A stretch of DNA of 64,000 nt from Raillietiella orientalis (taxonomy: Eukaryota): NCBI GenBank assembly GCA_036172245.1, contig JAYWIR010000044.1, forward strand, positions 248,001 through 312,000. The letters are read 5' to 3'. The position numbers were made by a program, and so were the translations under genes. Positions 1,066 to 46,807 of the stretch are shown one piece after another (the first letter of the stretch is position 1; each line of letters begins with the position of its first letter). Below the pieces are notes generated by a model. It had not been told where the DNA came from. It saw only the letters and a program-made list of their open reading frames with translations, and did not search any database.

Positions 1066-4000
1066 CTGGAAAGACAAGGCACCGTTACCCACGTGGCGGC
1101 GCGTGGTCGCCGCGTATTCCTCGGGATGTCAGATCAGAGGGCAGGGGCATCCACGCAACCACGCAGATCTTGGCAGTTCGTCATGGGGATTCGACGAGAG
1201 ATCGGAACGGAATTCAGATACGAGAAGGAGAGCGAGGCAAGGTATGGTACGTGATTCTTGTGGTCCAGCGGTTGCGTGTTCTGGGACGATGCGAAACTTT
1301 CGTGGAAACTCACCCTTCATGTGCATTTCATCCTTGCCATGGCTTTCTGACTCCCCTGGAGGTAATTCTGGAATTAAGGAAAAAGGATGTCTACACATGC
1401 GTGAATGTATGTACGCAGCAACGGCGAACACTCATGCGGATAGAAGCCAAAGCTGGAACTGACCACGGAGGCGTACGGATTCGTTCGCTTTCCCTAAGGA
1501 ATTTTCCGATTTGCAGTGATAAGTTCCAATGTCGTCGTACTGAGCGTCATGAATCCAGAGTGTGAGTCGAATTCGATATCCCTGCCTTTGCTCTTCGATG
1601 CGGTACTTCTTGCTGAAATGAAACAAAATGCAAGCAATAGTTCCACAGAGGATTCTCCTAAATCTTGCACGTCGGATTTCGACGTGTTCCAAGCTGTGAA
1701 AGACTCAAAGTAAGAGCGCAGCTCACTTGTTCATTAATATTTGTTCCCCTTTACTCCAGTAATTACTTGTCGTAGGGAACGCCTCTATGGTACAATGCAA
1801 CTGAACGTCGGTACCGAACGAAACACCCATTACTTCATTGCTTATCTGTACCAAAGGTGGAACTGATTGTGATGCTGTATTTAACTGTTCTTTAATACTT
1901 ACAAGAAACCTGGACATCTATTTTCTTGCTGACTGCTGGGGAAACATCATTGGAGGCCACGCACAAGTAGGTGCCCATTTGTCTTCGCGTGACGGAAACG
2001 AGAGTGAGCTGATGACCTTTGACCTTTTCAGCTTAAGAACGGAGGAACTGCAAATGCTCCCTTTCTATTGACAAAGAAGTTACCATTGATGATCTTCCCG
2101 TTTAGAAAGACAGTCATTGGTTTGTTATCTTCTCTGTGCCAGGAAATTTGAGGCTTAGGGTGACCTTTCGCATGACAGTTGAGAGTCAAGTCAGTACCCT
2201 CGTTTATGAGCACATCGCTGCTGGTTGTCTCCGAGATGATGTCGGGAGACACTGTAATCCCCCTGAGTAACAAGCCAAAAATGTAATTCTTGCAATTACC
2301 GTGGACATCCAAGCACTTGATCTGCTTCTTCATGGGACTGCTGTTGATCTGACACATGTAACAGCCTCGGTCGCTCTCCCTGACGTGCCGTATATGTAGA
2401 TTCCACTTTTGGAAATCCTCGTGAGAAAGGCCAATCCTGGTGTTGTGGGTTATTACTTTGGTGTGAAGGGTGAGGACTGTTTGGGATTCCGACTTAAGCC
2501 ACACCACCTAAGGATCAGTAGAGAGCTTGAAACCACATCTGCGATGATCTGGATAAGCAGAGCAGAAATCGAAATCGGCTTGCGGGTTTGCGCTATAGTG
2601 AGCGATGGATCATGATGTAATCCATGTACAGTAGTGCGACGATTGATGCCCAATCAGTGTACACTCAGGTTCCATGTCTGCGAAATTTCAATGGAAAATG
2701 TCTAGAATGGCGCTTCAGGGCAACTTTAGTGGCGCATGCGAGCGATTCTGTGAGCGAACATAAGAGAGATGCCAGAGACACCAGCGCACGAAGTTGATGA
2801 CTGTTTGTCTTTTTAGTTTGGATGCTCCCAGCTGTTCATCTCAAGGACTCTGTTCTCATCATTTTCTCCATCCCATCTGCCTCAGTATTTAGTCAATGTT
2901 TGCTTATTTTGAGGTTTCAGATTTCTCTTTGACATTTAGTTTGAATATTGAACTGCCGTGTTACCAGAGATGAGACCTTGGTCACTCGGGCTGCTGATCG
3001 GAGGCCTTCCTTTGGAGTGGGAAGGATTCTTGATTTCCTCTTGCCACAGCTTCCGAGCGTCAATGCGAGTTCATCCCATCCCGATTAGAATGTGGACGAA
3101 GCAGAACGCGTTCCTAGTGATGCATTTTCTGGAACGTTCCTTCTTTTCCTTCCACAGTTCGGATTCCCAGGTTCCCTGATTTATCGCCAATAAGCCAAAT
3201 TTGCTTGTGGGACTCACTTCAAAAGTCGTCATCAATGGTCCTTCCCCATTCCTGCTCTCCCCAGAAGAACAGCAGCAGTGTCCCGAGGTTCGATCAATTG
3301 CTCGGGGGGTTGGGTGCATACAGCGAGTGCTACTACGGTGTTTCCTCACAGAAGAGACGTGGCTAAGATTTGCCGAGCTTGGAACGAGACAACGAAGGCA
3401 GCGAAGTCAAATTATCCGAAAATCGGGAAGGATTCCTCAACAAAATAAGGCGCATGATTAATGCTGAAGTGACCATCACGTAGGACGTCTTACAGGCACG
3501 ATCATTGAGAATGCGTAAAACAAAGAAGTACTATGTGAGAGACTGAGAACTGACCGGGCTGTAGTCCCATCTCCATGGAATGAGAGTGACTCGACCCGGG
3601 TCGGTGTCGAATAGCTCACCCTGCATTCCCAGATTACATTAGCGACCGCCATGCTACTCGTGCACGCTGACGTCACGTCGCGAAGCCACACTCGAAGAGC
3701 GTCACTCAAAGTGATCCAGCCATATTGTGTCACGCGTACATAGATTCCGCGTTTCAACGGTGAAAATGATGAGGGAGGAAGCGCATCATCGTTGATGCTG
3801 CGAAAAGTTGAAAGCTGAAAATCTGTACATGGCGTGCGTTTTAATATCTTCCGTCCATCCGAGAACCCGGCAGGAATCCCACGGGAGATTCACCTTGCCT
3901 TGTCACCTTAAATGAGGAGAAATGCTGCCTCATATCTTAAAATCAACCGACTTCAACAAGAAAGTGATACAGGGACGATGTGAGATGCTGACCAATAGCG

Positions 4001-7000
4001 ATGGGGAAGCCGGTGCGACATGACCTCATGCTGAGGAAAGGGTGCCTCGTGATGCTACCGGACGAGACAGCGCGTCGAAGCCCCATTGACCCTCTCAAAA
4101 CCGCAAGTCGACCCAAGTGAGGTTGACCCAATGGCAGAAATCGCCAGTGCCAAAGGAAAGTTTGCGAGTTTTCATCCTGACCGATGCAACGTTTCAAGAA
4201 AGACTGCCTCCACTCTTAGACACTCCCCCCACCTCTCTAACCACGAAGAAGCCGGCCAGGTCGAGAAGAACGGAGGATCCTTCAGCAAATCCTCACATGT
4301 GTTTAGTGGTATCCAAGGCGTTATGAGAACTGGTCTCGGGTTATTTCGGTTGCTGAGTGCAGAGGTACCTCAAACACCCGAAGAGGCAATCGAGCTCCCA
4401 GAGAAAGGATGGGGCCACCAGAGAAAATCCAACGCAGAGAAGAACAGCGCTGCATAATTGCCCAACTGTTTGAGAGCAGATACAGCGTCTCTTTCTTCTC
4501 CCTTTCGGATCTTTATCGTTGGAAACCGAAGAAGAACAGACAGCTCATCCGAAGGATGCGGCGGCAAGATGGTTTGAATCCTGGGCAACACTCGAGGAAA
4601 GCTGCCGTCAATTCGGATGTAAAGAAACGCGCTGTAGAGCAGTCCTGGGAGCGGTAGTCGAAACGGCTATCAGTTGCAGAGACGAGGAGGCTGCTGGTGT
4701 CGACAGGATTTTAATTCAGTTAATGATCATTTACATGCAGAGAATAATGATCTTCCTGTCATCACCGGGCGACAGCAAGCGAGATGGAAACGAACCAGCG
4801 GGCCGTGGAACGAGAAGTGGAGATCACCGAAGGAACGAGCTTCCTCGCAGGAAGCTCCAGACCACATTCAAGCAAGAACATCGACTCCAGAAAAACACTT
4901 GAATTTAGGGAATTTCGAAATCCTCTGTATGGGACTCACAGGACCAGAAAACGCTCTGCGGGCTCTACAGGATCGGGTCGCTCTGTCATGCCTCAAGGGT
5001 GAAGCTGATCGCAAACACCCCTAAATGAATGCATGCTGAAGAGGGGAAAAAAAAACTCAAGACGAACGCATTCTTTACGAAATCTCTCTTCAGCTGAGGG
5101 GCAATTCTGCTATTCGACGCGGGAGTTTTTGATTCACTGTTGACATTTCGAATCAAAGGTTGGCTGCTGACATCGCAGCATGGTTTTGCAGCATCACCAT
5201 ATCTCTAGGGGTTTCCGATTTTTGAAAAGAAGACCTTTCTTAAGCATAGCGAAATGAATGTCGAAGCAACCTTCAAATCTACCGTCTCTCTATTCTACAT
5301 TGCTTCTCCCAAAGCTCGCTAATGCTATTCGTACACGTCTTCAGTACATGGTATCGAGATATTGATGCAAGAATACGTTAATACACCAAATAGGACCGCC
5401 AACGGATGCATATTATGTTGATGAACCAACGGAATGTCTCGGTCTACCCAATCTCTACCGCCTAGAAAGCCGTGAGTTTGCTGCGGACCGTTGCTTCGGG
5501 CTGCTGCTAACCTCCCCTGATCCAACAGTGCAAGAATGAATCTCTCCCAGGAAGGGTTCAGTTCGCTGGTTGCAGGCGCTGCCGACGGACGAGGATTTGG
5601 AGAGCTTCACTTGCGGAACGTTCGACGGAATGTGGAAGCAAACTAGCGGCGACATTAGAAGTATCTGGAAGATGGGAACACAAGAGTCTCCAGAAGGCAG
5701 CGGTGAACGAACGAGGAAGAAGCACCAAAAGATACATTTGACGAGTGCACGAGCACGTGAGGAAGAAAATCTCTCACAGTTTGACACGAGGATCAAGGGG
5801 AGACCAGGTCCTGCATTGAGCAGCATCGACCTTCGAGGAATTTTCTGTTCAACCTCCAGCACCTGCGATTGGGAGACTGCGGATTCTCATTTTCATTTTG
5901 AGCTTCGACTCCACTTTCTTCCTGTGCAGTCGTGGTCCACCAAGAGCGCCTCTGGTGGACCGTGAAGAAGGCGTGGAAGACGGAAAGAGAGGCTACGCCA
6001 CATCTTCAACGGATGCGTCAACCAAACTGCGTTTGCCGAGGCACGGCGAGCTGGTGACAGAAACCCAGAAGACTTCCCTGAAATGTAATGGGACGCTGGC
6101 TGCTACTGGTGGGCATCCAAAGCTAGTGCCCCGGTGCGAAGGAAAGGGAATTACACCGAGCGTTTCACAAGAATCCATCAGCAGTGCCGAAAGAGACGAG
6201 GCGGAAGGAGAGCAACCAGCGAGGAGTAAGAGCAGTGGTCGTGGGATCTCTAAGATCTCAATACGCAGGAGACAATGTGGGGCTGAGGGGATCAGGGAAC
6301 TCCCCAGGAGATTAGAGGAAACAAATCAGCAAAGAAAGGGGCGTGATGTTCCTGGGACGTAAACCGAAAAGATTGGACAGACTTGCAACGGAAGGACCAC
6401 TGTAAAACACGGGATCTCGGCCTTTCGGCTAAGATCAGAAAATTAGCGAGTATCTGGGACGGATCCCACCCTAAGACCGAATTCAGCATTAGAAAAGGGC
6501 AACAGCTTGATACTGCTAAACGTCGCCTGCCCAGTTAGGAATGGTGAGGAGGCGTTCTACAACACCGGAAGAGAAATAGGAACGAAACACCAAAATGCTG
6601 CCGGGCAGGCATCCCAGAGAGGAATCCAAACTACCATCCTTGCCTTCATAGTTAGGTGTACTGGATGCAGACGAGATGAGGAAAAAGGGATAGGGGTAGC
6701 TCAAGCACCCAATGCAGTGGAAACAGCTATTGGAAGCAGCGCTTGGGTTTGCGCCAGAGGGCGCGGGCAATCCGACGGAACACTTGAGAGAGGGGAAGCG
6801 CACAAGGCTGCAGGCAAGCTCAGTATCGCCAGAGGAATAGGTGAAGAACGTCCAAAGGAATGCATCCGAAGAATCCACCTACATTATCCGAAGATAAGGA
6901 AGATGGCTGAGAGTCCTCTCATGTCAGTTCTTAGCAACTGTAGCATTTTTTCCCTTTAAATACAATATCAAAATGTAGCACGGGATGAGTTGAAGCGACA

Positions 7001-10000
7001 AGAGAAGTAGATGAAAGCTTCCCTGCATTCGCTTTCGCATTATTTTATGTAACTGCATGTACGTCTCAACGTGTTATTGACGACATCCCAGTCGCATCAG
7101 GTCAGAGGGAAGAGGGGCCACGAGGTTTTGTTTCGATTCGGAGTCAAAGAAGAAGCCATGGCAACCTTATAATTTCCCAGGTTTCGAATGTGGCAGGATA
7201 GCACGACCTCCTTTCCGAGAGGAACAGTGGCGTTCGAAGGAGTTTCGGTGAATTCCGGCTCCTGGATCCTGGATTCTGAAAGATCAAATAGTGTACACAA
7301 GCTGTAACATTCAACGCATCAACGATAAAGCAAAACCGTCTATCAAAATTCATGGACACCGTGAACAGGCGCATCGTACGATGAGCGAAAACGAGTATTC
7401 CCTGGGGGCAGTATCATCCAAGAAAGCGCCGTTAGGGGTAAACTTGGTACTCCACTATCAGGCAGGTATCTTAAGCAGGATGCTACCAACAGGCGATTTC
7501 GTTTTCCTACCAAGTGACGTGGCTGACGTGAGATAACCTCAGATCCACGATCATTTTGTAGACAAAGTTTTCCTATCGCATCGCTTACGCTCCTATGTGA
7601 CCACGGGAACGGATCTTATGGGCAGTGGAAGAGATGTGCGATGATTGATGAGATGGGCGATTCCTTAGCTACTGATCTCCGGGCTTTCCAGCGCTAATGA
7701 ATGGAAAAACAGGACTGCAACGAAATCTGAAACCATTTTGCAATTCCTCGCAATTTCAACACGAGATGACCATGAAGTCTGCAACGTAAAGGAAAACCAC
7801 CGCCTGCCCTTTCGGATACTGAGGAGATGTCGACGAAGAGAGTGCGCTGATGTCATCTGAGGATCCACAACGCGACGTTCAGCAGGGGAAAGAAATACAG
7901 CGACCACGGGGAAAACGCAATGGTGGAAGAATCACTAGGAGAACACGTGGCTGCTGAAAGGTCCACCGAGAGAACGAAAGTCCCAACTAGATGCAGCCTT
8001 CTCATTCCCAAATGCAGAAGAAGCAACCAGCAAAGGCATGAAATTGCGCGCAAGAACTTTCCAGCTTCCCACCTGACAGGAGCAATGGAATGTGCCTGGA
8101 ACGACTTCAGATCGTGATGGAATTTCGAGGAATTAGTCGATGATGGATGGATTGGGACGCTGGATTGCGCGTCTGAAGAAAACTTCCTCCCAAACGCAAG
8201 TTTGAGACAAACTTCGGAAACATTGTGAAGATGTGGTGTTCCGTTTGCAGTGCGCTAATGAAGTTCTCTAGGAGTTGAGACTGGACCAGAATTTGTAAGA
8301 AAAATCGGTCGATTCATGGAAGCTGACCTACTTTCGATTCAGGGGGAGGGGTCATGTGATCAACATCGCCAAATCCACAATCGTGGAATTCGCTGCTGTG
8401 ACATGTTCCAGGCTGACCACAAAGAATTATGAGTGTTTCTCATGGAGGCTCTCGAATACAAGACCTCATTATCAGTTTTCCAGGATGCAACCGCCCTTGG
8501 ATTTACCACTGGATCCACGCCTGCTGAGGTCGTTTGTCGACCCAAGGAATGGCTCTCAACGCAAAAGAGGACACTGAAATTATCCTGACTAACCTGGAAG
8601 GTCAATACTAGATAACGGACATCAATACTAAGATAACGAGTCGAGACTTGATTAGCACAAATAAGTTTGACTTTTCTAAAGCACACAGACTGTACACACG
8701 CATACTGGAAGTCTTCCCTGCTGCAGTGCTGCAGAGAAATACGAAGGTCCTCACGTAGCAAACGCCCGGGAATCTTAATGGAAGCGCTCGGGAGACATCA
8801 CGTTCTGAACGCGCTCTCTGTGCGACGAGGGTGCAAGTAAAAGTGACCGGTCATGGTGCCAAAGTTTCTCTGACACTTTGGCAATTCCTCCTGGGTGCAT
8901 TCAAACGCCTGACACCTCCTAGGAAACGTCATCAAACCAAGGTGGACGTGGCATTACTGGTGCCCTCCGTTCGCTAATGCCTCGTGATTTGCTCTCCTAA
9001 AAGACTCTTTGCCGCCTGCTGACCCACAGCAACTTGAAATTCCTGCACGGCTTTGTGAATGCTCTGAAAAATGAAGTATGAAAAAAAAAAAAAAAAAATG
9101 AGGTTTGCAACGATTCCAAGAAGAGTGACTTTAGTGATAGAAATCACTGGTTCGGACTCGGTATCGTGTCCATGCAAATGGTTCTGTAACCAGGTGTTCC
9201 CATTCTCGATGGGGAATGCGAGTAGGGAATCAGTCGAGAACACAAGGCTGCATCTTTACAGACCCATCAATGCCTCGGTACGGAAAGAGAACGCAGAACC
9301 AAGGTACTGCTAGCCTGAAAGACTCATGCCCAGTCCGGAAGGACGCTACCGTAATTTTTCCTGTTTTGACAGCCATGAGATCTATGGTTCCCAGAAAACT
9401 CCTTATTTGATTATTCTTTACTCACGGAAAGACGACGGCATATATCCGGAGAAGTGAGGAAAACAGGCATTTGTTTTTACACTTGATCAATGGATCCAAG
9501 AGTTCTTGAAATTCCAGAGAGACCAGTAAACAAGTCACAGTGATAAGAGATTAAGATGCTGACGTACTTGCAAGATAGGAAATTGCAAAACAGCGTATGC
9601 ACCTTTCTTATGCTCTATTTTATTTGGCACATTTTTTTTTTTACTCTCATTGTGTTAACGACAACCGTGACGACGACAACTACGTGGTAGACGGAGGTGC
9701 TGCAAACTAGGTACTAGTTCGTAGGTACTCATACGTCTGATGGCATTCTCCCATCGTTACGTCGTACTACCCGGGCATACGAGTTACTGTCTGAGATCAG
9801 ATCCAACCTAACCTCATCTCACTCCCTTCACTTAATCTAAACTAAGCCTACCTAACCTAACTTGGCAATCTACTTTTTCAGAACAACGTTCTCATGGATA
9901 CCCCTTCTAGGGCAATGGGTTATTCTCCAGCAATTGGGTTGTACGCCAATCCATATCAAACTGAGCAAATTTCTTTTTCTTCTCCTAAAATAACTTCTGT

Positions 10001-13000
10001 TCCAGAGGAGCGGTGTTTTCGTACTGTGCGCTATGAGGCAATGGCTGTACTGTAAATTAAGAACTGTTCACGGCTACACCACGCTGAAAGCACCGTCTCT
10101 CGTGCGATCGGCGAAGTTAAGCAGCGTCGGGCCCGGTCAGTACTTGGATAGGCGATCTCCTGGGAACCCCGGGTGCAGTGAGCGCTCTTTTTTTTTAACC
10201 TACATCGTAGGCTTTGTGGTTAAGGCTTCCGCGCGTGGCTCCGTGCGTCGCGGGTTCGAATACTTTGGCAGAAACTGACGCCACTGCGTCGTTGGGTTCC
10301 GAGTTTCTCCTGCAAGATGGCGCTGGTTGGTCGAGACATTCGGGCGTGGCCCCGGTGGTGGGTTAAGCCGGAGTCCCCCGATGAAGGTCGGAACAATGGG
10401 AGTCGACCTTCGGGTCCTTCCAGGAATCAAGGAGTGGGGAGTTCCCCCTCCGGGCGTGCAACGGAGAGCGGACCCCCCACACCGGGGGGATCCCTCCGGT
10501 TTCAAGATGGAGCAGAAGCCTTCACAGGAACCTCTCCAGTTGTTCAAAGGAACGGATCCCCCTATTGCGAATCGTCTCCTCTTCACAGAGTGCAAGGAAG
10601 CAAGCGAGAGCGATCCCCCTGCGGGAAGCTGCAGAGCCCCTTCTGAATTTCGGAAGCGTCCCTTCGGGGTTCTCTTCAGAGTGAACAGGAGCGGTTCCCT
10701 TGCGGGTTCCCTTCGGAGAAGAAATTCCTACAAGCGGATCCTTTCCGGGTTCCCTCCGGAGAAGATGAAATGGAGAGGGCTACCCTCCCTTCCGGGGGAT
10801 TCCCTCCTGTAAAAAAAAAAAAAAAAAAAAATGCTTCCGAGACGACCACATCTTTAAGCGTTTGAGAGGAGATAAATGCAAATACAGATGTATCCAGAGA
10901 TAGCCACAATGTCTGAGGAGTCGTCTTGCATCTCTCTTTCGGCTTGCGCTGAGCCTCTTGGCCTTCCGACCAGAAGTCGGAAGGCCAAGAGGAAGGCTTC
11001 TGGTTAAACATGGAACGCATGCATACTTGCTCAGAGGCACATAAAAACTGGATCCAAGCAAGTGGCTCGTGTCTGCTAGTGGGGAAGATGCTGCAATCTT
11101 CAAGCAGCCAGCAGAAAAAGTTGGCCAGCCACCTACACGGGAAACTGAAAAATTCTTCTTCGAGTGGGAGACTTCGAGATAGCTCTAAGGCGGAGAACGA
11201 AGCGGAATCATGCCCTGGACCGGTATCTTGCCAGAAATTTTTATCAAGCACGCAGGCATTTCTTCCATTTTCGTTCTTTGCTTCGTCTTTGCTTTTGTCT
11301 CTGGAGCGAAGGAGCGCGTTGGCACACTGGAAAATGGATCCTGCCTTGGATGGTGAGTGAAGTAAGGAATCATGAGATTTCAGCAGCAAGCACGACTTGA
11401 AATACCAGAGTCTTCCACAGACTCTGTTTGATGCAATCCGTTTTCTTCAGGTTCCTAAAGCAATCTACCCTTTTCCACCGTTTTCTCAACACAGAGGTGT
11501 GGAAAGCAGTAGAAGGAAGATAGGGGTACCCAGGATGAGCAGCGAAAGTGAAAGAGTCACGTGCGAAAATATTCACTAGGAAAGTGTGAAAGAGATGTAG
11601 GAGATACACGGCTGCAGTCAGTACCGGGTGAACCACACGAATACACACGGAAAACTTTTAATTAACCTTATTCAAAGGCTAAGACCATCTACTCTTTCAG
11701 GAGCCGCGCCCTGTTGAATTTTCGCTGCGATATTGCAGGACCGCATCATCAATCACACGACTCGCACGAACTGACACTCATCTTCCAGTGGCGCTGCTGT
11801 CGGATCATGCAACAAGATCACCGGGGATGCTTCAGCGGTACAGCGACCGATTGAACCTTCTCGTTTCAGGAATGGACGTGAACTTCGGGGAATTCTCCAT
11901 CTCTCAGTGAACTGCAAAGGAAGCGTTCCTCTGTCCGTTTCCTTGGAGGCACTTTCATGACCCGTCATGCCATTGGTCTTCTGGTATCTTGAGGATCGTC
12001 TCCCACCGACTTCGCGCGGATTCTCTCCTGCTAACAGAGATCTCATAGAAAAGCCCTCGCGTTTAGAAAGCTGTTGTTGAGCTGTACAATGTATGTCACT
12101 GGATGTCACTTGAAGTGTCACTGGATTCCTTTCTGGATCCTTCTGCACGTCAGATATGACCAGAAGCGCACGACCATCGAAAGGTGCCTTCCCCGAACAC
12201 GTTATAGGTTTACCGGGCTATACAGCGGAGATTCTTCAGGAACATGAAGGCTGCACCTACCGCAGATTCGATTCGCGGAAAATAGGGTCCCATCCACTGA
12301 AGACACGAGTTCGTTTTTGAGAGGGAACCAAAAAGGTACTCGAACTTCGCCTCGACATCGGAAGAAGAACGGACTGCAGTGGAAAAATTTCTGAAGGACA
12401 TTGTGACCTCCGAAGAATGCAGCATTCTGCGAGGTCCTCATGTTCCGTTTTCATGAATCGCCTTCCAGGACTCCTCGATCACTCCGGACTTCCACCTACC
12501 AAAGTTTCCGCGGAACGCGAGAAATCGTTGCGTGTCAATGCTGCTGGTAGTCCCTGAACGTCGATGTGATGCCCCGAACCCCAGCCACGGGCAGGGCACA
12601 GTGGAAAAACGCACGTGGGAATGGTCTGCTTGCGGCATCTCGCCGGCACAACCACTTGGATAGTTTCTTACCGACGGGTTGGAAGGTCGTATTTGCTGGA
12701 GACGCCAGACCTTTCGGCAGCTGGAAGACCAGCGAGCTGGCGGACGCTGCCACTCGTAATTGTGCGCAGGGACTCCTCTGGTAGAGTGAACTGTTGAGTG
12801 TGTGCCCCCCGACGAACTTGTGGTCCCTCCCTCGTTCGTGAACACCTCTGTGTTCCCACTTCCCTGGAAGCAGGACGTGCTCCTGCTGTTGCATCGGGGT
12901 TTCCATTGCAATCCGCGCTCCCATCTCGTTTCCGGGGGAATTTTCCTTCCCGAACTGTGCAAGGCGAGGAGCAGTGGAATCGCTCCCGCACCTGCTCTTC

Positions 13001-16000
13001 AACTACGGTGCCCTCCGAGGACTATGGCGGAGGCTGGCTTTAGCGCTCCCGAACCGGGGGACACCGCAAGGATGTTGATGCCCCTCTTCTTCACGGCAGG
13101 CGGCCTTTCGTTAAGTGCGGTCATCGCAACTATCAGCTGCATCCGCGCCGTCGTCATGGCTCGCCACGTATTGGAGTCGCGAGCGACCCCAACAGAGGTC
13201 ACCAGGATTGCAGACGTCAACATGAGGACGGCTGCTAGGTGGCCTCATCCCAAGGAAGAAGTGAGTAAGGAGATCGCCGGCATTCAACGCCGGTTCTGAA
13301 AAGAACGAACGGCTGACACCAAAGATCCGTGTCCTCATGTCCCCCCCTTCATATCTCTTTTTGTATTTATTTGCGGTCCCCCCCTCCCTCCCGTTCTGGA
13401 CTTTTGGAGTGCCCGACCTGCGTGTCCGGGAGCCCTCCCCTGAAGTTCTCGCCCCTTAGTCTGGGAACTCAGTTCCCAGATGGCTCGTTCCTTTTTTCGA
13501 ATAAATTCCCCGGCGAAACTGGATGATGAACCACTTGGATAGGTTTTCTGGTCGCGAAAGAGTCCGTCGGGGGGTCGTATTTTGGACGCGAGGGCATCGG
13601 CTAGGCAGTATGGTTTTGGACACGAAGAAGTGCGTTCGTCGCTGATGCTTCGGGGCGAACAAGATCGCGTTTTTTGTTTTCGTTTTTCTAGAAGGGAAAG
13701 GTTGGAAGGTTGTTCCGGCGCTCCTATCAGGCAGCACCGCAGAACTTCCTGTTGGCCGTGCCCAAGAACTCAACCCGGAGCAGGGCTTCCTGGTTTCTGC
13801 GCATGCCGTCCCTCACGAGTTCCTCGAAGGGGCGCGGAACTAATGCAATCCCATAGGTCGCCACTCAAATTATCCCGAGCAGAGCAATTACGATTTCCGG
13901 GAAGTGATTCTGCCAGCCACCAGCAGCGGAAGAGGTTCCAGTTTTCACAACTGCTTCCAATGATAAAGGATGATGCTACACTTGATGAGGCAATGCACTC
14001 CGTTCCGAAAGCAAAACTCGGAGGAAGGCGTCGTGCTAAACGGAGTTCTTCGAATGCAAATGAAGGCTTTCCGCATCGCTCGCCGGGTCTCCTGTTTCCA
14101 TGGTTTCGTCCCTCAGCAGCACCGTGTGCTCATTTGCGAGAACTGCTGGCATCCTAAGCAGCAAATAAGTTTTGCACCACCAGTTCTTTCCAGCCTCGTA
14201 GCTGGGAGCAGCTCCAATTAGTACCAGGGAGTTCTTAGCAGCCGCAACCCGCTGTCCGAAGAGCCTCTTCCCTGTTTGCTTCCGGAATCGACGCCTGGTC
14301 TCTAATGCAATCTGGCCATGATTAACGCTCTCGTCACTTCTATTTTTGCCATTCTAATCAAAACACTTTCGGGTCGTTGATAGAATGAAGAGAATACACT
14401 CGCCCTCTTTGATCATTATCAACATAGTGTCACGTTTGTTTATTTTTAACGACTCCTTTCTGATTGGCGTATCAGTAGTCATCATGAACGTAAAGAAAAC
14501 CAGAAATCGCCATTGGCCTCCACTGCCTTTCTGGAGACGCCCAACAAATGTCCTTGATCCAACGAGCGGATCTCGTTCTCCCGGTTTCCCTCTTCTGCTT
14601 CATGGAACTCTGGTTCTTTGCGTCCAGTGGAACTCTGGTGCACGAGAGGGTAAAGAACTAGACTGAGCACGCCGTACGAAGAAGGAGCCTGGAGTGGATG
14701 TGGAGAAGGCAGCATCCTTCTGGGGCATCCGATTCACGAGAACGAATCGCGGCCTACAAGAAGAGGTCAGACGGACTGGTAGATGAACTGTTTGGCTGGT
14801 CTGCAAGACGGTACGTGTCACGGACCTATTCGGAGAACGGCCGAGGCAAATCCCGCCTTCTCCTGATGGGATCTGCGGTGACCCTGTCCGTCATGTCAGT
14901 CTTTTCCGGCTGCTGCTTGGGACATCGGGAATCGGAGGAAACAATCACTACGACAGACTCATTTCACTACTCTTTGTGTTGAATACGGAGATGTCCAACA
15001 CGGAGCAAGGGAGCTCGGTTTGACCTCCATTCTGGCGCCGTCCACCGACGATGCAAACGCCCCAGCCGCTGCAGGCGGCAATCAAGGAATCCATTCTGCT
15101 GCGAGAAATGGATCTAGTTCTAGCTACTACATCTTTGATTTTCAAGTTCCGTGTCGCCTTTTCCTCTATTCCCTTGAACCCAACTGGGGATGTGGATCGG
15201 TGCTCCGGGATGAAAGCAGTTCTTTGCGTCCAGTTAGTAAAGGAGTGTGCTGACTCTATTGGAAGTGTAAGGTGGCTTGATTCCTTCAGTCATTTCTGCT
15301 GGTATGAAAACTCGTAGACAAAAACTTGCCAGAAGAAAAATAGAGAGGCCTTGATTGCAGTAGCAGCAGAAGACGGGATACCTTCCACCGAGTTGATGCA
15401 GATGAGGTGGGACTGGCTCGTTCGGAAGCAGAAGCAGGATATTGAGATTTTGTAGCAAGTTCTTCAAGAGCATTTCAAGATGAGAACCGCGACACCTTGC
15501 ATGCAGCAGTCCGTCTGTGTGAGCTGCCCAGCGTCAGACAAGGAAAGGTCCATGGAGACTTCCAAGCGGTGGTGGCGCCTTTGAATCACTGTTCGGAGCT
15601 GCCAGACCAGCTTCCCCTCACCGCGGTGGTACCAAAGAAGGGAAGTGGTGTCGAAGGAGCTAGAGCCCTGGAGCACCTTCCTGAGATCGCTTTGTTCTTC
15701 CCATCTCCTTCCGCAGACTTCATCTTCGCGTGGACAGTGCGCAGCACGGCTAGGGCGGCATTCCTGAAGGGGAAGTGTAAACGTCTTGCTTGCTGAAGAG
15801 GGCTGGACGCTTGTGGTCTCCCCAATCGGGTTCGCGGCTATCGGGATGTGGGTCTTGCGAGTACAGCGATCGTCCGCAAAGCGGGAGCGAATGTTTCAGG
15901 GCAGATAGGGCAATTAAAACCGGACGGCGTGGTTAAAACCTGATGGATTGGGGGAGGGCTGCCCGTCATGTTTTTACGATTTCCCGGGATCCGAAAGACA

Positions 16001-32700: not shown

Positions 32701-34842
32701 GAGCTTCCAGTGATGGACGGAGTCTCTGGGAATTTCCCTGGAGAGCTTCGAGATCTCGTGCCTCCTGGTCGAAGCCTACGTCTTCCCTCTTCGGTACCAG
32801 CAGACCGTCATCTTGCTGGTGCTCTGGGCACTCCTTTGAAATGACTGTGCCTCAGCAGTTTCCACTGGGAGTGCCTAGTGGAAACTGCAAGCAGCAGGCT
32901 GCGATAGGAGGGCATCGTTGAAGCGCATGTTTCCACGGTGACTCACCTTCGGAGAGATGTCCACGTCTCCAGAATTGCAAGTGGCTCACCGGTCGACATT
33001 CTGGAGAGCCAGTTGCAATCACCATCGCCTCCACCCGAAAGGAGATAAAATCACTCATTGCGTGACGTGGGCTTGGAATGCTTGCGGGTCGACTGAGAAG
33101 AAACCGGCGAGAGCACCTCTTCCGTCCCTTCCCTGCCCGACACAGACCCTCAGGGGCAGGGTCGGGGACGAATACAAAAGAACTAACTGGTGGGAAGCGG
33201 TAGCGGCGACTGACCGCATTCGATGGGTCTTCTGGAACCCGCGTGGGATGCAGGCGCCGTCCTCCTTGACTGCGTCATCCTTCGGAAGAGATTCGAGGTC
33301 ACTTTCCTCATAACTGCGTGGTCGAGGCGCGTGACCCTTCCCGCTGGCGCACCTCCTCGGCGTCCTCGGAACGCTACGGTCTTCCTGACACAGCGCAGGA
33401 TCAGGGGATAGGGGAAGAGAGCGGAAGGTCGCCCCGCATCAAGCGACGCCGTTACGGCGCTTCCCGGGCTCTTCCACACGCTCCGAGGGTCGTCGCATCC
33501 CACCAGCAGGCTGTGAGGAATTTCCCGCGGCCTCCCTTCGTCTAAAGACGCCGCTGCAGGCTGCGCGGGAAGAACCAGTGCGCAGACGGCGAAGACTCTT
33601 CACACTGCCGTCCGAGGGGCAGTACGGAGATGTCCAGCAAGAGGGATCACCGTCTCCGGCGGCGGAGCCCACAGGCATTCCGCCCAGCGAAGCGGTCCTT
33701 CAGCACGGGCACGCGGTGTCGCCTCTTAGCCTGCTGGCCCGTTCCTCCACAGACCCGCCTGCCTCGTCGCTCTCGCTGCGAGGTTCCCACCCTACCGTGT
33801 GACCAGCCACCGTTTCTCCCGTTGGAAGGGCGATGATGCTGAGGCTAAGGGCTGGTAATGCCTTAGTCCAATCCGTCCTTTTCCACTCCGTCCAGGAAGA
33901 GTGCTCTCAGGTTGCGCATGGAACGTGTCCACTCCACAGTCAAATCAAAGTTCTATCTCCTCCTCGTTGGCCTCACACTTCGTCACAGATGCTCTGCAGA
34001 GGTCCGTGAGGGGCTTCCGACTCTGTGCAAGAGTAACCAAAGTCGAAACTCCTGGACTGTTGTCCTGGAGACTGCTCTTTTCGGCCGCGCCCTGATCCCT
34101 AGCTTGCACGGCTCTGTTGAGCGAGGATGGTTTCTGCTGCCTCCCCCGGCAAAAACGCAATCCCCTGCGCAGGAGAACGGTTCAGGGAGCAACAGTGGAG
34201 GATTTCGTATGATCATTCAGGACGCTCTGAAAGTAATCCTTCATCAACGATCAATCCAGGTTTCTGATCCTCCTTTTCCTTTTCATCGCTGTTGCCATTA
34301 GGAATTTCCTTTTCCTGGAAAGGTCGAGGACTGTTCACTCTTCATCGAGTAGTTCACCTTTTGGACATAAATCCATGACAGCGTTCCGTTCTAGTTTCCT
34401 ATGGAACGCAGTCATCTTCCTCTATTTTTGACGGTTGCGCACCATGATCCACTTAAACGTCATGTCTTTAAGGATCAGCGTTCTCAGGATAATATACCAA
34501 GATGTTTTTCCATTTTGTTCAAGAGAGTCCTTGCTGCTCATTTCCAGAACTGCAACACCAACTTCATGCAAGAGAAAATACTTGAGCAGAACCCCCCCCC
34601 CCCCCCCCAAAAAAAAAAAAAAAACACTTCAATTTGATGATTAGTGGAAGTCGGATGTCATCCTCAAATTCAACAAAATTCAGTGCCTTCTCTGTCGAGC
34701 ATCTGACAAATCTTGTGCCACACTTTCTTTCAGCCCGTCAGCTGCGTCGGGAGCTCCCTGGGAGATGGTGCGTGCGGCATGCAGTGCTCCAAGGCAGAAG
34801 AGAAACGCAAGATCGCACGCTGGAGTTAAGGCCTTGACGTTC

Positions 34843-35515
34843 TAGTTGACTCTCTTCGGCCAAGGAAAGAGGACACCCGGAGTGTGCAACACCATCCGAG
34901 GACCCTGCCCTAGCATCGAAGGTTACCCTTCCATGGTGCCGTGGCAGCCTCTTTACGAGGGTTGCTTTCCGCCTGTCCTGGACGAGCCCACGGGGGGTCG
35001 CTAAGGGATTCTTCGCACGCCGCTCGGAGTGCGACTTCTGCCTTCAGCCGACACGACCGCTCCATTTGCTTTGCTCTCGTTTTCCCCAGAGTGAACTGAA
35101 GAGGCCACCTCATGCGCCGGACTGAGGAAACAGTCTAGGTCAGTGGCCGAGACGGAAGTCTGCCAGCCATCCATCGGTGAGGTCAACAGGATGGCGCAAA
35201 TTGTGGAGGAAGAGCTTGGCGGCTAATCCTGTTGACGTGTTTCCGAATGGCGATGCCTGGAAGCGATGGCAACGATGATTCGATAGCTGCTGTTCCCAGA
35301 AGCATGCCAACCACTTCGAAGGAACAGGGAACATTGGAAATCGTCTCGGACGCTCAGAGGTAAGAAATTCTTGGGAAGACTCAAGCTCGCTGGAGAATCG
35401 GGAAGTTTGTCCAAAAGCCTTTGCTGGTGAGATTTTGGAACCGACTCTGTTTTTCTCGGGTGTTCATGCGAACATTTACCGATCGCTGAACGCTGATGCA
35501 TCGGGAATTACGACC
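34843..35515 (+). repeat. Left arm of a 673-bp near-perfect inverted repeat
   Basis: Reverse complement of 37361-38033 with no indels and about 3 substitutions seen. Identical or near-identical peptides appear on opposite strands in the ORF track. Confidence 0.97.
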
Positions 35516-37360
35516 GCAGCACGTGGGCTCCAATGGAAGACCACTAGTCTGGGATAAGAAAAAACGTCCTGGTGGATCCACCTCCCAGATGATGCAGGAA
35601 GGCTCACAAAACGACCGTCGCACCGATCTGGCTTCAGGGAGCGGAAAAAAAAAAAAGCACAAACTGGTCTCCTAGCAACCTCAGCGGCGGTTCGTTCATC
35701 CGATAAACGAAGGAACTCGGGGAATCGAAGAATGCTTTCCCGAAAAAGCAGTGCCCTGGAGAGCTTGTGGTGGTAACTCGCTTCGGCGCTCCGACAACCT
35801 TAGCACAACGCTCTTGACTTTCTGCAGCGCTTCTTCTTCGGAGGTGTACTGAAGAAGAGCGCTGTCTCATCGTAACCATGTTTTATCTGCTCCATAGTGA
35901 CAGCCTGCCATGTGCTAGAAGCAAGTGCTCGGCGAAGAGAGGCCACCAGCATGGCAGCAGCCCTCATGATGGTGTCTCATCTGCCAGCAAAAGTCGCCAG
36001 GGAGACCGCCACCGTCCGGAGCCGCTTCCACATGGGAAGGAACGTCTTTAATCAAAGACCCCTGTTCCCACTTTTCGAACTTTTTAAATTTATTTCCCTT
36101 TGTTCCTAACTTTTTGGAACCAGCGTGGTCAACCCGAATGAACTTTTTTTTTTTGTCATTTCTTGTTTTTAAGGGGGATTCTTCTTCCCCTCTTCGTTGT
36201 AGTTTGTTTTGTTTTTTCAAAATAAAACGTCCCAGCGTAAGCGAGTAAAAACCAAAAAAGCATGAAACGTTTGCGCCGGTCGTAAGCATCCCGACAGATT
36301 AAATTATGACGAGCGGTGGGGTGTTTGACCTCGGAAATGCTGATTGCGTTCCTTGAGAGCTCGTATTTAAACAGGCGCAATGTGTTCGGAACACGCGTCG
36401 GCAATGGCACCTACGGGCAACCGCATCCTCTCCAATCCATCACAGAACAAACACCACAGTGATGCTGGTTATCTGCGATGCTGCGCGCTGGCGCGTTCTG
36501 CAGCCCTTTTCGTTTGGGCTGCCTGCGTCCCTTTCCTTCCACCTCCGTCCCGGAGGTGTTACAGGGGTGAGCGACGTGGTGTAGAAGGACTCTGCTACCG
36601 TTCTGGAGCACGGGGGCAACTCAGGGTTCGCAACCGTCCTCCGGGATTTGCTGGTTTCTGGTGCACCATCAGCGCTTCGCATCTTTATTTGCCGATTCGC
36701 CTCCCGTCCTCAGCACGCTCTCTTCTGGCTTGGAAGTGAAGTGAGAAGCGGGTAGTGAGATGCCAAAGTGCTACTACATCTCATGGTTTGGGGGGAATGA
36801 AGATGGTGTTGAACACAGTTCGGCCACGTGATCACTGAGAGTCGAGAAGATGATTTACATCGATGAATTCTTGTTGCGATGAATTCCACCGATGATCCTT
36901 TTATGGATTGTCACCCTTCATGGAAACTGGATCGCCGAAATGGCGCACAGGAAACCATCCGACAAAATTCACATTTCGTTCCAGGAGGTTCGCTGTTCTC
37001 CCTTCCTCTTGTGAGGCACGGCGTTCCTTTAAGATGTCTTTGCTCAAGTTGAGGAACTGATCTGTACCCGAAGACAGAGCACCCATAAAAGCGAGCGCGC
37101 CCCTCCTCGACGAAGCACGAAAAACTGCTTCCCACGCGGAATGGGTTTCAAGATTTGCCATCTTGGGGAGCATCTGCTGCTAGAACATTTCCTTCTCTCT
37201 TCCTCATCCTCATGGGAGGATGGTTAACTCCTGGATTCGTTGAACTGCGGTCCTAGAACCTGGTAGGGCATCGAGGGATGCCCAATGCGCATGAAATGAC
37301 CTCTCCAGTTAATTCAGGGGAAAACGAGAGCAAGCAGTCGGGTCGCAGCCCACGCGCTGA

Positions 37361-38033
37361 GGTCGTAATTCCCGATGCATCAGCGTTCAGCGATCGGTAA
37401 ATGTTCGCATGAACACCCGAGAAAAACAGAGTCGGTTCCAAAATCTCACCAGCAAAGGCTTTTGGACAAACTTCCCGATTCTCCAGCGAGCTTGAGTCTT
37501 CCCAAGAATTTCTTACCTCTGAGCGTCCGAGACGATTTCCAATGTTCCCTGTTCCTTCGAAGTGGTTGGCATGCTTCTGGGAACAGCAGCTATCGAATCA
37601 TCGTTGCCATCGCTTCCAGGCATCGCCATTCGGAAACACGTCAACAGGATTAGCCGCCAAGCTCTTCCTCCACAATTTGCGCCATCCTGTTGACCTCACC
37701 GATGGATGGCTGGCAGACTTCCGTCTCGGCCACTGACCTAGACTGTTTCCTCAGTCCGGCGCATGAGGTGGCCTCTTCAGTTCACTCTGGGGAAAACGAG
37801 AGCAAAGCAAATGGAGCGGTCGTGTCTGCTGAAGGCAGAAGTCGCACTCCGAGCGGCGTGCGAAGAATCCCTCAGCGACCCCCCGTGGGCTCGTCCAGGA
37901 CAGGCGGAAAGCAACCCTCGTAAAGAGGCTGCCACGGCACCATGGAAGGGTAACCTTCGATGCTAGGGCAGGGTCCTCGGATGGTGTTGCGCACTCCGGG
38001 TGTCCTCTTTCCTTGGCCGAAGAGAGTCAACTA
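37361..38033 (-). repeat. Right arm of a 673-bp near-perfect inverted repeat
   Basis: Reverse complement of 34843-35515; the spacer is 35516-37360. Confidence 0.97.
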
Positions 38034-38429
38034 TGAAGAGGCCGATGTATGGCCTTAACTCGAGCGTGCGATTGCAAGGAAGCCATGCAAGAGTTTTTTT
38101 TCCTTCTGTTCTTTTAGAAAACGTGGAAAATTTAGGTTGTGAGGATGCGAGTTTTACGTGCGGAACCATTTCTTGTTTTGTTTCCCCTGTCGGAGAAGCA
38201 AATTTACTATCTTTCCGTAGGCTGCAGCTTCTCTCGCTGCTTCATTGCTTTCCTGACATAATGATGGAGCTGCCACGTGCTCCATGGATTCGAGAGAGAC
38301 TTAAATTTTAATTCTTCGCCATTATGGCACTCAGCGTCCCAGCAGAAGAAAATTCCGCCTAACTCTACGGAACGGAGATGAGGATTTTTCAGCCGGCAAA
38401 GAGGAGCCATTTCAGTTTGAGAATTTCGG

Positions 38430-42597: not shown

Positions 42598-42615
42598 TCG
42601 CTTCTCGGCTAAGAT
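42598..42615 (+). ncRNA. U2: Possible U2 snRNA 5' fragment with internal deletion
   Basis: TCGCTTCTCGGC+TAAGAT corresponds to about U2 nt 2-13 and 22-27, i.e. loss of CTTTCGGC between two TCGGC repeats. Confidence 0.45.
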
Positions 42616-42619
42616 TGGA

Positions 42620-43010
42620 GTGGGAGACGAGACGTCACAAACCAGGTACAGACACTCTCGTCTTTACGCAACCAGACATGACGCGATAGCGACCAGAATG
42701 AGGACAGCGGAGACAGAAAAGGATTGCTGGAAAACCAGGGGTTTCGAATCAGCACGTCCTCTTCGTCCAGTTTTCGCCCTACGGAAGGATAATAAAAGGG
42801 AACTAGTATGTTTCGTGTTCATTGAAAAACTGGAAAACGCCTTCGATGCAGCCAGAATGAAGGAAAGATGATTGCAGGGATGTTGCCTTCCGACTCTCCG
42901 GGAGAGGAAGTGATGTCAGATGGGATATCATCTTAGCCTCGGTCCTCTTGGAACTTGGGATCTAAGAAACTATGCAACTATTCGGGAATTGAGGTTCTCG
43001 TGAAGGTGTG
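42620..43010 (+). mobile_element. Decayed RTE-clade RT fragments
   Basis: RGF...PVFALRKDNKRELVCFVFIEKLENAFD resembles AVFALR...KELHCVFVDLEKAYD, and CNYSGIEVL resembles CSNYRGI.L. An opposite-strand RLYGSNW (LYGSETW-like) lies at 42448-42468. Confidence 0.55.
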
Positions 43011-43149
43011 TACCCAAGAGGAGGCAACATATGGTCAGAGCATGTATCGGATACACTCGCAACAGCTACTGCCGGCTGCAACATCAGCCACGTGGTGCGG
43101 ATGTCCTGCAAGTGCAGGAACAACGAGACGAGGTACAGCAGCTCTTTGA

Positions 43150-43950: not shown

Positions 43951-45337
43951 TAGCGTACAATTGCTGAGCAGAAACTTGAATTCCCGACTCGGTTCTAGAG
44001 GAGTCCAAAGTCATCTAGAATTTTACAACGGGCAGGCAGGCTCTAAGCACAATGCTGGAGCATTTGGACCGTCTGTGATTTTCGTATCTCGACAGTAGAG
44101 CAAAAACGAACCTGAATGCAAGAGAATCTAGTAGAGCTCTTTAGAAAATCCATCAGCTTAATCGAATCCTTAAGTTCACCAAGAACCAAGCTGGATAAAT
44201 TTTTAGGGCTCCTCAACATGTTCCTTCTTTACAAAATCCTATGAAACAAACGTTCTGTGCCTTCCCTTCTCGCATGTTGATTCTTTCAATCGCCTACTCA
44301 GAAAACCACGGTTTGAGTGGATCGATGCGGTCACTGTGCCACACCACGAATCTGGGGTCACGCAGTGACAGTCTTGCAGAGTCCAAGGCTCCAGAAATCG
44401 AAAGAGGATTTTCCAGCGTAGCGCTGTTGCCTGTTTTCTATTTCAATCGTTTCAAAGTTGCTTTTCCTGAAGCATCATCTATTAGCATCTGCCTTTCGTT
44501 TGCTCCACATTCCATGGGGAGTCCAGGAGAATTCCTTTTTTGGCTTTCCTGAAAGAATAAGACACCATCTGTCGCCGTACTTGCCAAGGACACTCACAGA
44601 GTAGCGCTTTTGAAAGAAACTGTTGCATAACGGACGTCAACCTGCTCGTGCCGTAGCCATGGTTACCAGAAACGCACTTCGCTTCTTGATTTTTCTGTGG
44701 AGGGAACAGAAAGAAATGCGAGTTTTATAAAGAGTTTTGTGGACTAGGGGCATGTGAAGGCCTTACCATTATCCATCATCCATCTATCAGTTGCTCTCTC
44801 ATAAACTTGATCCTTTGTCGCCTGGATGGTTGAAGTCAAACGTTAGCATGGTGCGCCCTAGGTACTGCCTGCCGCAGTGGTCCCCGAAGTGGTGAGTTGG
44901 CCAACCTTAACTGGTGCCCTGCTTAGGGATATTGACAATTTGTGGTAACGAACTGGTACATGCATCTGATCAGACATCTTCAGGGGATCATTTCCGTGCA
45001 CTTGGAATTAAGCTAATTCCAAAATGAGTAGAGGCGGCTTCCGCAATTGCGATTTCTTCTTTCTTTTTCGTTTTCATACTTAACCACTCTCATAGGTTCA
45101 AGAGCCAGTTCGTCCGGCTATCCTCCTCCTGGGATGCCAAGAACGGAGATGTCCTGAGCGAGCCAGGAATTTCCCAGAAGGCGCGCGAACCTACGATCGA
45201 AAGAACGGAGGAACCGCATAGAATAAGGGGACCAGTATCTTTTCGACCTTCATGACCTGTGCAGGAAAACAATTCTTCTCTCTTGCACAGTGCCAGACCT
45301 AAAGGGAAGCCAGAGTCCGTCATATGGATGAGCAGTA

Positions 45338-45890
45338 GGAAGATTTCGAACCTCAGTGATCAATTCATTGAGAACGGGTGCTTGCAAATCAAGCCACGTC
45401 CGACGGCAGTGGTGGAGGACTCAGCACATCACGATACAGAGGGTGTTTCGTCCGCGAAGACTCCAGGATTCAGCGCTGAGCGGTAGAATGAAAGTGGAAA
45501 AAACTTCTTCCGTTGACAAGGAAGTCCAAGAGGAGGAGGCTCTGTAGCTCGCGCTCAAACATTCAACATTTCAGGAGTGACCACTTCTCAGCCCCATTCA
45601 GCTGCGGCCATGAACCGGTCGAGCAGTACGTCTGTTCCCTGGATGCACAGGAGAGACAGCCACTAACAGCGATTTGACACGTGAGACGGCGTCTCGTTGC
45701 GAAGACGACGTCTTCTGCAGCTGCGAGCCTACTTGCAATGTGAGATCTGTATTTCTGACCGGGCGAACTATGACCTGCGAAGTGAGGATCACTCTGTAAT
45801 CCTTAGCACCTACTCACCTGACCTGAGAAAGTGCCTGGATCTTCCGTCTAATGCTACGCATGACATGGTTGTTGCATGGTCCCTGTAATT
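45338..45890 (+). mobile_element. Second L2-type piece; 45338-45560 is a direct repeat of 43280-43494
   Basis: Clear DNA repeat ggaagatttcgaacctcag...ggctctgtagctcgcgctcaaac. Downstream RAYLQ...NYDLRSED resembles the L2 C-terminal P.YL....LRS motif. Confidence 0.6.
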
Positions 45891-46453
45891 TTCTATAAGG
45901 GGTTGGTATCCCTAACGGACGCTCGACGCGAGTTTTCTATTCACGGAGTGCACGGAATGTATTGTCCTCCGTCCGGTTGTCCGTCCTCAAACATGGACGT
46001 GCATCTTGGGTCCCCATGAGTCGTGGCTCTTGTTTCTCGGACGGCCACAGGCTTCGTGCGTTCACGCTTAAGATTCGTGAAGATCTGCATCATCAGGCAG
46101 TGTGGCGGTTTGCCGGACGAGGGAGCGAGCAAGAGGACGTTTCTACCGCTGGGTGCTCAGAAGTAAGAAGCTGAGGGACATGGAGCCTTAGCAAATGTCC
46201 GCGCCATAAACGTGCTCGCCTCGCAAGGGCGATTCGTGACTCCCCCCCCCCCCCCTCGGAAGTGTCGCCTTCAACACTGACTTCACGACTGAGTAGCTGA
46301 AGACACTCTTTTAACAATCTCTTCGTCTAGCTGCCAATTATAATGCAGTCAGAGCCCAGGAAGGAATCGTAAGGAACTATGGTCATCTGCTATGCTTTGA
46401 TTTCGGGATATCCCCTTGGCTTGCAAGCGTCTTCGCGGGGATGGCCCAGCCGT

Positions 46454-46772
46454 CCAATAGATATCCCGACTAAATCGAATGACCGAAGATACCATTAACC
46501 TCCTCATCTTATCCGCATATCTTCAGGGGATGCCACACCGTCTTATTACTCCATTTTTCGGATCCCATGAACTAAGTGCTCCAATAATAAGAACATGGAC
46601 GTCTACTCTCATTCCTTTTAGGGTTGAGATTGCGCCAGTGGTTAATATTTCTGTTCTTTATCCTTTCTGGCAGTGTTAAGCGCATCCTCACCATTTTCAA
46701 ATGGGCATGCAGCATCAAACACCGCTGTTCTATTTTCTTTTTGGAGCACTAGGTCTGGTTTATGTAGGAAAT
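46454..46772 (-). mobile_element. 5'-truncated Utopia (NeSL group) retrotransposon, RLE domain
   Basis: Reads KPDLVLQKENRTAVFDAACPFENGEDALNTARKDKEQKY*PLAQS, then after a frameshift LKGMRVDVHVLIIGALSSWDPKNGVIRRCGIP*RYADKMRRLMVSSVIRFSRDIYW. The PD..D, PFENG, K..KY, GxLxSWDP and SRDIY motifs are all present. This frame is not in the ORF track. Confidence 0.9.
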
Positions 46773-46807
46773 CCACGCTTTGATCTTAGCCGAAAGGCCG
46801 AGAAGCG
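46773..46807 (-). ncRNA. U2: U2 snRNA 5' fragment (about nt 3-37) abutting the Utopia tail
   Basis: Minus strand CGCTTCTCGGCCTTTCGGCTAAGATCAAAGCGTGG versus U2 ATCGCTTCTCGGCCTTWTGGCTAAGATCAAAGTGTAG. Confidence 0.9.

Follow-up and report, generated by a model that had tools for sequence, protein, structure and literature searches.

The window (the whole stretch of 64,000 nucleotides of Raillietiella orientalis DNA that was analysed) contains a neural gene encoding a Dpr-interacting protein (DIP), one intron of which holds the locus described here (Table 1). Its placement in a DIP intron, proposed in a first-pass annotation, was confirmed by the flanking exons, the best PDB match being DIP-gamma (E 3e-37). 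In the same gene (~2250-2300, minus strand) a 48-nt in-frame GT-AG stretch corresponds to a 16-residue gap relative to DIP-gamma and, from its sequence, is probably a very short intron. Antisense to the gene, the intron carries a decayed Utopia-type fossil and, near the 3' end of this fossil, an insert (the 6415 copy) in which a 5' part of U2 snRNA (a head) is fused to the C-terminal part of a Utopia-type element. The fusion is real. Utopia is a non-LTR retrotransposon of the NeSL clade which targets U2 snRNA genes and encodes a restriction-like endonuclease (RLE; Kojima and Jurka 2015, PMC4640811), and the C-terminus found here is likewise of the RLE type.

Table 1. Features of the DIP intron with its Utopia insert, and the two other U2-headed copies in the window
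Feature	Position	Strand	Remarks
DIP gene intron	2508..7165	-	Ig exon ends at 7166 (-) with GT donor; next exon starts at 2507 (-)
Older, more decayed Utopia-type fossil, likely holding the 6415 copy near its 3' end	5363..6400	+	nhmmer E 7e-19 at 5485-6024; protein HMM match at 5363-5680
Probable 8-bp target-site duplication (TSD), 5' copy (CACGGGAT)	6408..6415	+	Exact repeat of 6979-6986; final base doubles as U2 nt 7
U2 snRNA nt 7-29, loop variant with C at nt 18	6415..6437	+	Numbering taken from L070
Decayed, 5'-truncated Utopia-type RLE coding tail	6438..6790	+	Begins 13 codons before PD
Utopia 3' end and 3' UTR, AT-rich terminus	6791..6966	+	Alignment to L187 tail
Second U2 piece, nt 26-37, 11/12 match	6967..6978	+	Sole window match with at most 1 mismatch, both strands
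Probable TSD, 3' copy	6979..6986	+	Exact repeat of 6408-6415
Third capped copy: U2 head with loop deleted, decayed RLE	42598..43075	+	Junction in zinc finger, ~180 nt before PD
Second capped copy: U2 nt 3-35, RLE from ~5 codons before PD, part of 3' UTR	46375..46807	-	RLE E 1e-57

Read along the plus strand, the 6415 copy consists of a duplication, U2 nt 7-29, ~530 nt of Utopia, U2 nt 26-37 and the duplication again. The U2 numbering is consistent with the fruit-fly U2 row in S1 Fig of PMC4640811. As had been annotated, the head agrees at 23 of 23 positions with another at 46803-46781, the C in the loop included. RLE homology adjoins it directly, both in tblastn with a local, less decayed copy (E 3e-10) and in nhmmer (6427-6655, E 8e-23), which bears out the RLE assignment of the 6470-6670 region. 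The supposed read-through from U2 into RLE stands only in part: the RLE does follow directly, but the two peptides quoted for it, DQKISEY and GTDPTLRPN, belong to different frames, and the RLE frame reads EN*RVSGTDPTLRPN. The insert had moreover been taken to measure ~375 bp, which proved too short, Utopia continuing through the YW motif (6728-6733) and the 3' UTR to ~6966, and the second U2 piece to 6978. The PD motif of the coding tail has decayed to PN (6477-6482), and the tail has a stop, frameshifts and a ~57-nt deletion; an alignment to L090 was followed through the deletion to YW. When 6860-6975 was compared with Utopia 3' UTRs, the score obtained with the L187 tail was reached by none of 200 shuffles; seven other tails gave weaker results (p 0.005-0.42).

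The RLE tail is homologous to L071 and to an HMM made from 21 longer homologues and L071. These longer homologues include proteins of Ixodes and Ladona, both listed as hosts in a table of PMC4640811; together with the DIP gene, the homologue names point to an arthropod. Pfam returned no RLE match for either query, and 4900-7100 as a DNA query brought up a single relative (71% over 108 nt). The C-terminal zinc finger plus PD-(D/E)xK RLE of Utopia is recognized through the homology of the RLE tail, with decayed motifs in the 6415 copy, which carries no RT. Unable to code for a protein and without signs of function, the insert is a dead fossil within the intron. That this copy lies in a real U2 gene was considered and rejected, as no U2 3' part follows the copy and no promoter flank precedes it.

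The surrounding sequence makes it likely, although not certain, that the 6415 copy is nested in the older Utopia fossil. A remnant motif of the fossil's own RLE is seen at ~6202-6264 (4.5 bits; 1 of 300 shuffles scored higher). Since the DNA model found nothing in 6060-6414 and 6988-7090 showed no significant resemblance to Utopia 3' UTRs (p 0.055 at best in 8 comparisons), this one protein motif is what survives of the host RLE, hence the reservation about nesting. It could also be argued that 5363-6966 is a single old Utopia copy into which a head dropped later, the chimera being a positional accident. Such events have a precedent in L063, where a head lies in an old Utopia copy ~20 codons before PD with a 5-bp duplication, and in L171, where the head is antisense; moreover the Utopia sequence upstream of 6415 is on the same strand and roughly collinear. 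Nevertheless a late head is very unlikely at this locus, where ~325 nt of excess sequence, holding the second RLE remnant, separates zinc finger from RLE and the duplication encloses head and tail, not the head alone.

Two further copies with a U2 head at their 5' break (capped copies) are found in the window. The second is a ~430-nt insert in a non-U2 repeat, and empty-site paralogues (L091 and L092) align at both of its flanks; they fit one event or two at the same spot. The possibility of one interrupted element, raised by a weak RT-like match upstream (E 0.003), was discarded because the match belongs to the host repeat with the empty-site paralogues. No duplication was found around the third copy. 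The RLE tails of the 6415 copy and the second copy are 49% identical, a divergence as strong as had been noted at first. A T-to-C change in the U2 loop is common to the heads of these two (6426 and 46792); the exact variant has six copies genome-wide, three of them associated with Utopia. Two such heads in a window would be expected in 0.005 windows, or ~0.1 if any of 22 positions is allowed, and chance or age is possible as the reason for the common C. Utopia-type fragments without heads are also present at 45576-45968 (minus strand) and 45127-45180 (plus strand), and at least five Utopia pieces occur in the window.

Utopia-type elements target U2 in this genome, the U2 3' part following the element, and most copies are dispersed. 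Rfam gave 46 U2 matches; 30 were viewed and all 30 start at TCTGTTCTT after an AT-rich tail, which is the 3' junction and the U2 position described for Utopia (PMC4640811). A head within 1.5 kb was absent at 29 of the 30. The dispersed 3' ends (L007-L036) have the U2 3' part and downstream flank in common up to ~410 nt and then diverge, with several flank types, a pattern which would be consistent with read-through RNA. No duplication was found that explains these 30 tail loci, and 14 of them have no coding sequence left. The same join at TCTGTTCTT is present in relatives such as L070, L174, L178 and L179 and absent 3' of the 6415 copy. No intact U2 gene or junction was matched in the whole assembly (34-mer, 2 mismatches) and no 5' end of a full-length element was found; the assembly may lack the U2 array. 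The sole candidate seen for a native U2 locus interrupted by Utopia, and a probable one, is L070, on a 2.7-kb contig, where a repeated flank upstream leads into U2 nt 1-37, and a second copy of nt 27-37, 1.4 kb of Utopia and the U2 3' part follow.

An RLE protein search of the genome gave 1,378 candidates, of which 150 were scored (all E below 5e-15); the best 30 loci were examined with 1.5 kb of upstream sequence and 60 of the other 120 with ~850 nt. A head stands at the 5' break of 8 of the best 30 (chance 0.002 per locus). The heads start at -52, -86, -299, -349, -490, -783, -1058 and -1199 relative to PD, with junctions ~25 to 1,170 nt before the motif. Six of the eight are clear, L183 having ~70 nt between head and HMM match and L198 being degenerate. 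The other 60 loci showed no head within ~850 nt upstream (and a U2 3' part in two), so that capping is not general to all lineages.

The window fusions had first been ascribed either to a high-copy SINE-like family of 350-400 bp, with U2 head, RLE tail and one junction, or to a recurrent template switch or truncation hotspot. Copies derived from a master with one head-body junction, as in a SINE, were not found: the eight heads lie at eight different distances from PD, and none of the 15 known junctions, spread over more than 1.1 kb, is common to two copies. Capped copies are 45-89% identical, polyphyletic and scattered over the RLE tree, which was built from 340 nt of decayed sequence and has weak deep branches. 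Even within one subfamily (L175, L176 and L177, 83-89% identical) there are three different junctions, and nine capped copies have upstream flanks related neither to one another nor to that of L070. Among 93 heads examined, only L066 and L136 have a Utopia 3' piece behind them that belongs to their own insert, and U2 has an external promoter and none inside (PMC4494074). In favour of a SINE-like family are the loop substitution in both window heads and the 5 of 15 junctions within ~60 nt of PD, but it is hardly credible. The pattern of a head, 55-100 nt and CPFEN was met at three places in the genome by exact matching, which misses decayed copies including that at 6415. As caps recur at many break points, they appear to be repeated by-products of copying and not a new SINE family.

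A truncation hotspot is likewise contradicted, since the 5' boundaries of 90 RLE copies (10, 5, 11, 6 and 6 per 60-nt bin upstream from PD) decay smoothly with no peak at PD. What is supported of the earlier proposal is the recurrence of template switching, although at many positions and not at one hotspot. That both window junctions fall just before PD would be largely ascertainment, because a head counts as RLE-fused only if its junction is near PD; a mild preference for this region may exist, but three of the five near junctions were found by looking there.

Most heads in the genome stand alone. A 22-mer of the U2 head with at most 2 mismatches occurs at 523 places in 210 Mb (control 0), a density which predicts ~37 windows like this one, so the presence of two heads in 64 kb is not unusual as had been supposed. 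Among 100 listed perfect heads 93 were examined (the last 7 were left out, and two pairs are paralogues); all 93 start at nt 1-8, 36 of them at nt 1, and end at nt 29-37. With such starts they resemble RNA copies. A TSD (score of at least 7) is present in 32 of 93, compared with 0 of 278 shuffled pairs, and 18 of the 32 overlap the head end. Exact head matches reach nt 37 in 121 cases, nt 39 in five and nt 46 in one. The upstream flank of L070 was found at none of the 93. An RNA 5' start, internal 3' truncation, lack of an A tail and a duplication overlapping the 3' end are the features of tailless retropseudogenes, and the stand-alone heads match these. U2 nt ~26-37 is re-copied beside the head in L070, L066, L140, L041, L135 and L132, four of which are without Utopia. 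The branch-point region of free U2 is exposed, and priming there would also stop heads at nt 37. The sharp stop at this base was therefore dropped as proof of a co-transcript leader: priming on free U2 predicts the same, and one match reaches nt 46.

Among capped copies the clearest is L177, in which an 11-bp duplication surrounds the head and 1.25 kb of Utopia with no U2 3' part; it starts right after the A-rich tail, resembles the U2 target and does not overlap U2 nt 34-37. Convincing duplications were otherwise found in the 6415 copy and perhaps in L191 (9 bp). None was found in L175 and L198, and matches of 7-8 nt in L176, L179, L183, L190 and L204 were not convincing. A few bases shared at the junction are visible in 6 of 11 copies (L176, L177, L190, L191, L204 and the second window copy), judged by eye against relatives 65-89% identical and with no statistic; such microhomology was not visible in L175 and was weak or not assessable in L179, L183, L198 and the 6415 copy. 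Short U2 3' pieces are kept in the capped copies L175, L179 and L066. A three-part structure at L136 (C9:4867550-4869350), with U2 nt 1-35, a whole 5S rRNA with its T-run and a Utopia RLE fragment, indicates a serial jump.

The explanation that we prefer, while giving it only an even chance of being correct, is that capped copies arose when Utopia inserted off-target and the insertion was completed by switching, through microhomology, to U2 RNA as template. An off-target nick would prime reverse transcription on the 3' end of Utopia RNA, sometimes with read-through U2; after an early stop the cDNA end would pair over a few bases with U2 RNA nt 29-37 and be extended to the U2 5' end. The U2 RNA copy would supply the upstream half-target otherwise given by U2 gene DNA, and this U2 RNA could be free snRNA or could form the leader of a co-transcript of U2 and Utopia. 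The capping of 8 of the 30 best loci, the unrelated flanks, the head starts at nt 1-8, the duplication of L177, the three junctions of L175-L177, the short bases shared at junctions, the 5S rRNA chimera of L136 and the re-copied U2 pieces beside heads all argue for such a switch. Against it, most capped copies other than L177, the 6415 copy and perhaps L191 are without a convincing duplication, and the U2 nt 26-37 piece at the 3' end of the 6415 copy is equally expected from insertion in a pre-existing head.

For the 6415 copy, the order duplication, U2 head, truncated Utopia, duplication is observed directly. Its sequence suggests a dead 5'-truncated Utopia-type (NeSL-like, RLE) non-LTR retrotransposon which landed outside a U2 gene and acquired its head during that insertion, an account that we consider evenly balanced between right and wrong. 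The order proposed for it is a double jump: U2 nt 37-26 would be copied with a stall at the base of the first stem-loop, the polymerization would jump to the Utopia 3' end, and after ~530 nt of Utopia it would jump back to U2 nt 29. A start on U2 is suggested because the nt 26-37 piece is re-copied beside heads in the six other loci named above.

The same structures could have arisen in two steps, tailless U2 heads having been scattered first and then used by Utopia as half target sites. The 523 heads represent potential half-sites of this kind, and truncated R2 copies inserted into target DNA normally show microhomology and have lost upstream target sequence (PMC2718515). At 6415, Utopia would have inserted at nt 26-29 of a head and duplicated ATCA; the Utopia end is indeed separated from the duplication by U2 nt 26-37, and the target upstream has TGTA in common with the U2 end, in the manner of the stand-alone heads whose duplications overlap the head end. 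However, the cut would fall ~14 nt upstream of the canonical Utopia site (PMC4640811) and the 3' junction is not TCTGT-like. Moreover the L177 duplication is intact at the Utopia tail, with no overlap with U2 nt 34-37, and L136 requires a jump through 5S rRNA. We regard the two-step origin as rather unlikely in general, and its application to the 6415 copy as doubtful to a similar degree.

It is less probable still, and in our opinion quite unlikely, that a Utopia truncated within a real U2 gene was transcribed with its head from the U2 promoter and that this RNA was retroposed elsewhere. L070 has the structure of such a source, and the common flank to ~410 nt together with the U2 3' pieces of L175, L179 and L066 is evidence that read-through RNA was mobilised. 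Nevertheless sister copies with one junction would be predicted, and with 0 of 15 junctions in common there would have to be as many masters as copies.

The element belongs to a known family, and its form combines two known phenomena. Weak-specificity copies of Utopia outside U2 genes with TCTGT-like junctions have been described in reptiles and ants (PMC4640811). Unlike Utopia in its target, the 6415 copy is without the U2 3' part or the U2 promoter flank, yet it has a U2 head and a duplication; in the available parts of PMC4640811, U2-capped truncated copies at non-U2 sites are not described and no TSD is given for arthropod Utopia. In a literature search, the reach of which excluded most subscription papers and Repbase reports, no report was found of U2-capped Utopia at non-U2 sites or of tailless U2 pseudogenes in arthropods.

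The first phenomenon is the snRNA/LINE chimera (U6/L1, U5/L1, U6/L2 and U6/RTE; PMC4476161; bioRxiv 10.1101/2025.02.02.635956), in which a sense snRNA 5' part and a 5'-truncated element lie inside one duplication, as they do in the 6415 copy (8 bp) and L177 (11 bp). As in these chimeras every junction is unique, and internal priming is comparable to that of U5 and U3 (PMC4476161; bioRxiv 10.1101/2025.02.02.635956). Template-switch chimeras are known for L1, L2 and RTE (PMC4476161), whereas the element here is of the RLE type, has captured the transcript of the very gene that it targets and bears a cap in roughly one in four of its best-preserved copies. In PMC4476161 the U2/L1 chimera is inverted, unlike those seen here. 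The second phenomenon is the tailless U2 retropseudogene (Noll et al. 2015, PMC5322556), which likewise starts at nt 1, is truncated 3' in a single-stranded region, has no A tail and has a duplication overlapping the RNA end. However, that study ties them to relaxed L1 and describes them from therian mammals and anole, together with 8 from maize, whereas the present genome is that of an arthropod and has hundreds.

Heads of U1 or U2 were also added repeatedly to the 5' ends of SINEU and Tx1-Mar of crocodilians, in separate events and with short junction homology (Kojima 2015, PMC4494074). In contrast to the heads described here, for which no master was seen, SINEU comprises true families with masters and thousands of members moved by an APE-type Tx1 (PMC4494074). 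R1 and R2 of Drosophila are similar in the microhomology at truncated 5' junctions, in the target pieces re-copied there and in the carrying of flanking target sequence off-target (PMC2718515). Their upstream target piece is nevertheless found on full-length transcripts (PMC2718515), while here it caps copies truncated at many internal points.

Three points are new: how often capping occurs, that the cap is RNA from the very gene which the element targets, and that an invertebrate genome contains hundreds of tailless U2 heads. It may be speculated, at a level that we hold to be improbable but worth stating, that the first 37 nt of U2, which are the RNA copy of the element's upstream half-target, are carried by the Utopia RNP as a portable cap able to finish any insertion, and that the ~500 stand-alone heads are by-products of Utopia and not of L1. 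If this were true, a site-specific element could leave its low-copy target gene, and tailless pseudogenes would have been made by an RLE element in an invertebrate. To our knowledge the way in which RLE retrotransposons join their 5' ends and prime the second strand is still an open question, and R2-type proteins are under development as insertion tools. The repeated capping of off-target truncated insertions, once with 5S rRNA in addition to U2, would be a natural record of template jumping. Moreover tailless U2 pseudogenes would thereby be extended to an arthropod, and a possible starting route is offered for U2-headed SINEs such as SINEU.

Some minor observations were also made. At L052 (C3:1468989-1472010) a stand-alone head with an 11-bp duplication is directly followed by what we take to be a U6 snRNA 5' fragment, and a Utopia 3' piece lies ~400 nt upstream. 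The window contains a full-length 5S rRNA match with a T-run (10066-10184, 87 bits), after which come a GC-rich repeat (10287-10434) that is 70% like 17925-17786 and an A-run near 10812. In addition, the window has an inverted repeat of ~726 nt (34812-35529 and 37347-38072) with arms 97.7% identical and 1.8 kb apart, and a dispersed inverted repeat pair (12825-13426 and 55457-56057) with 76% identity over 627 nt.
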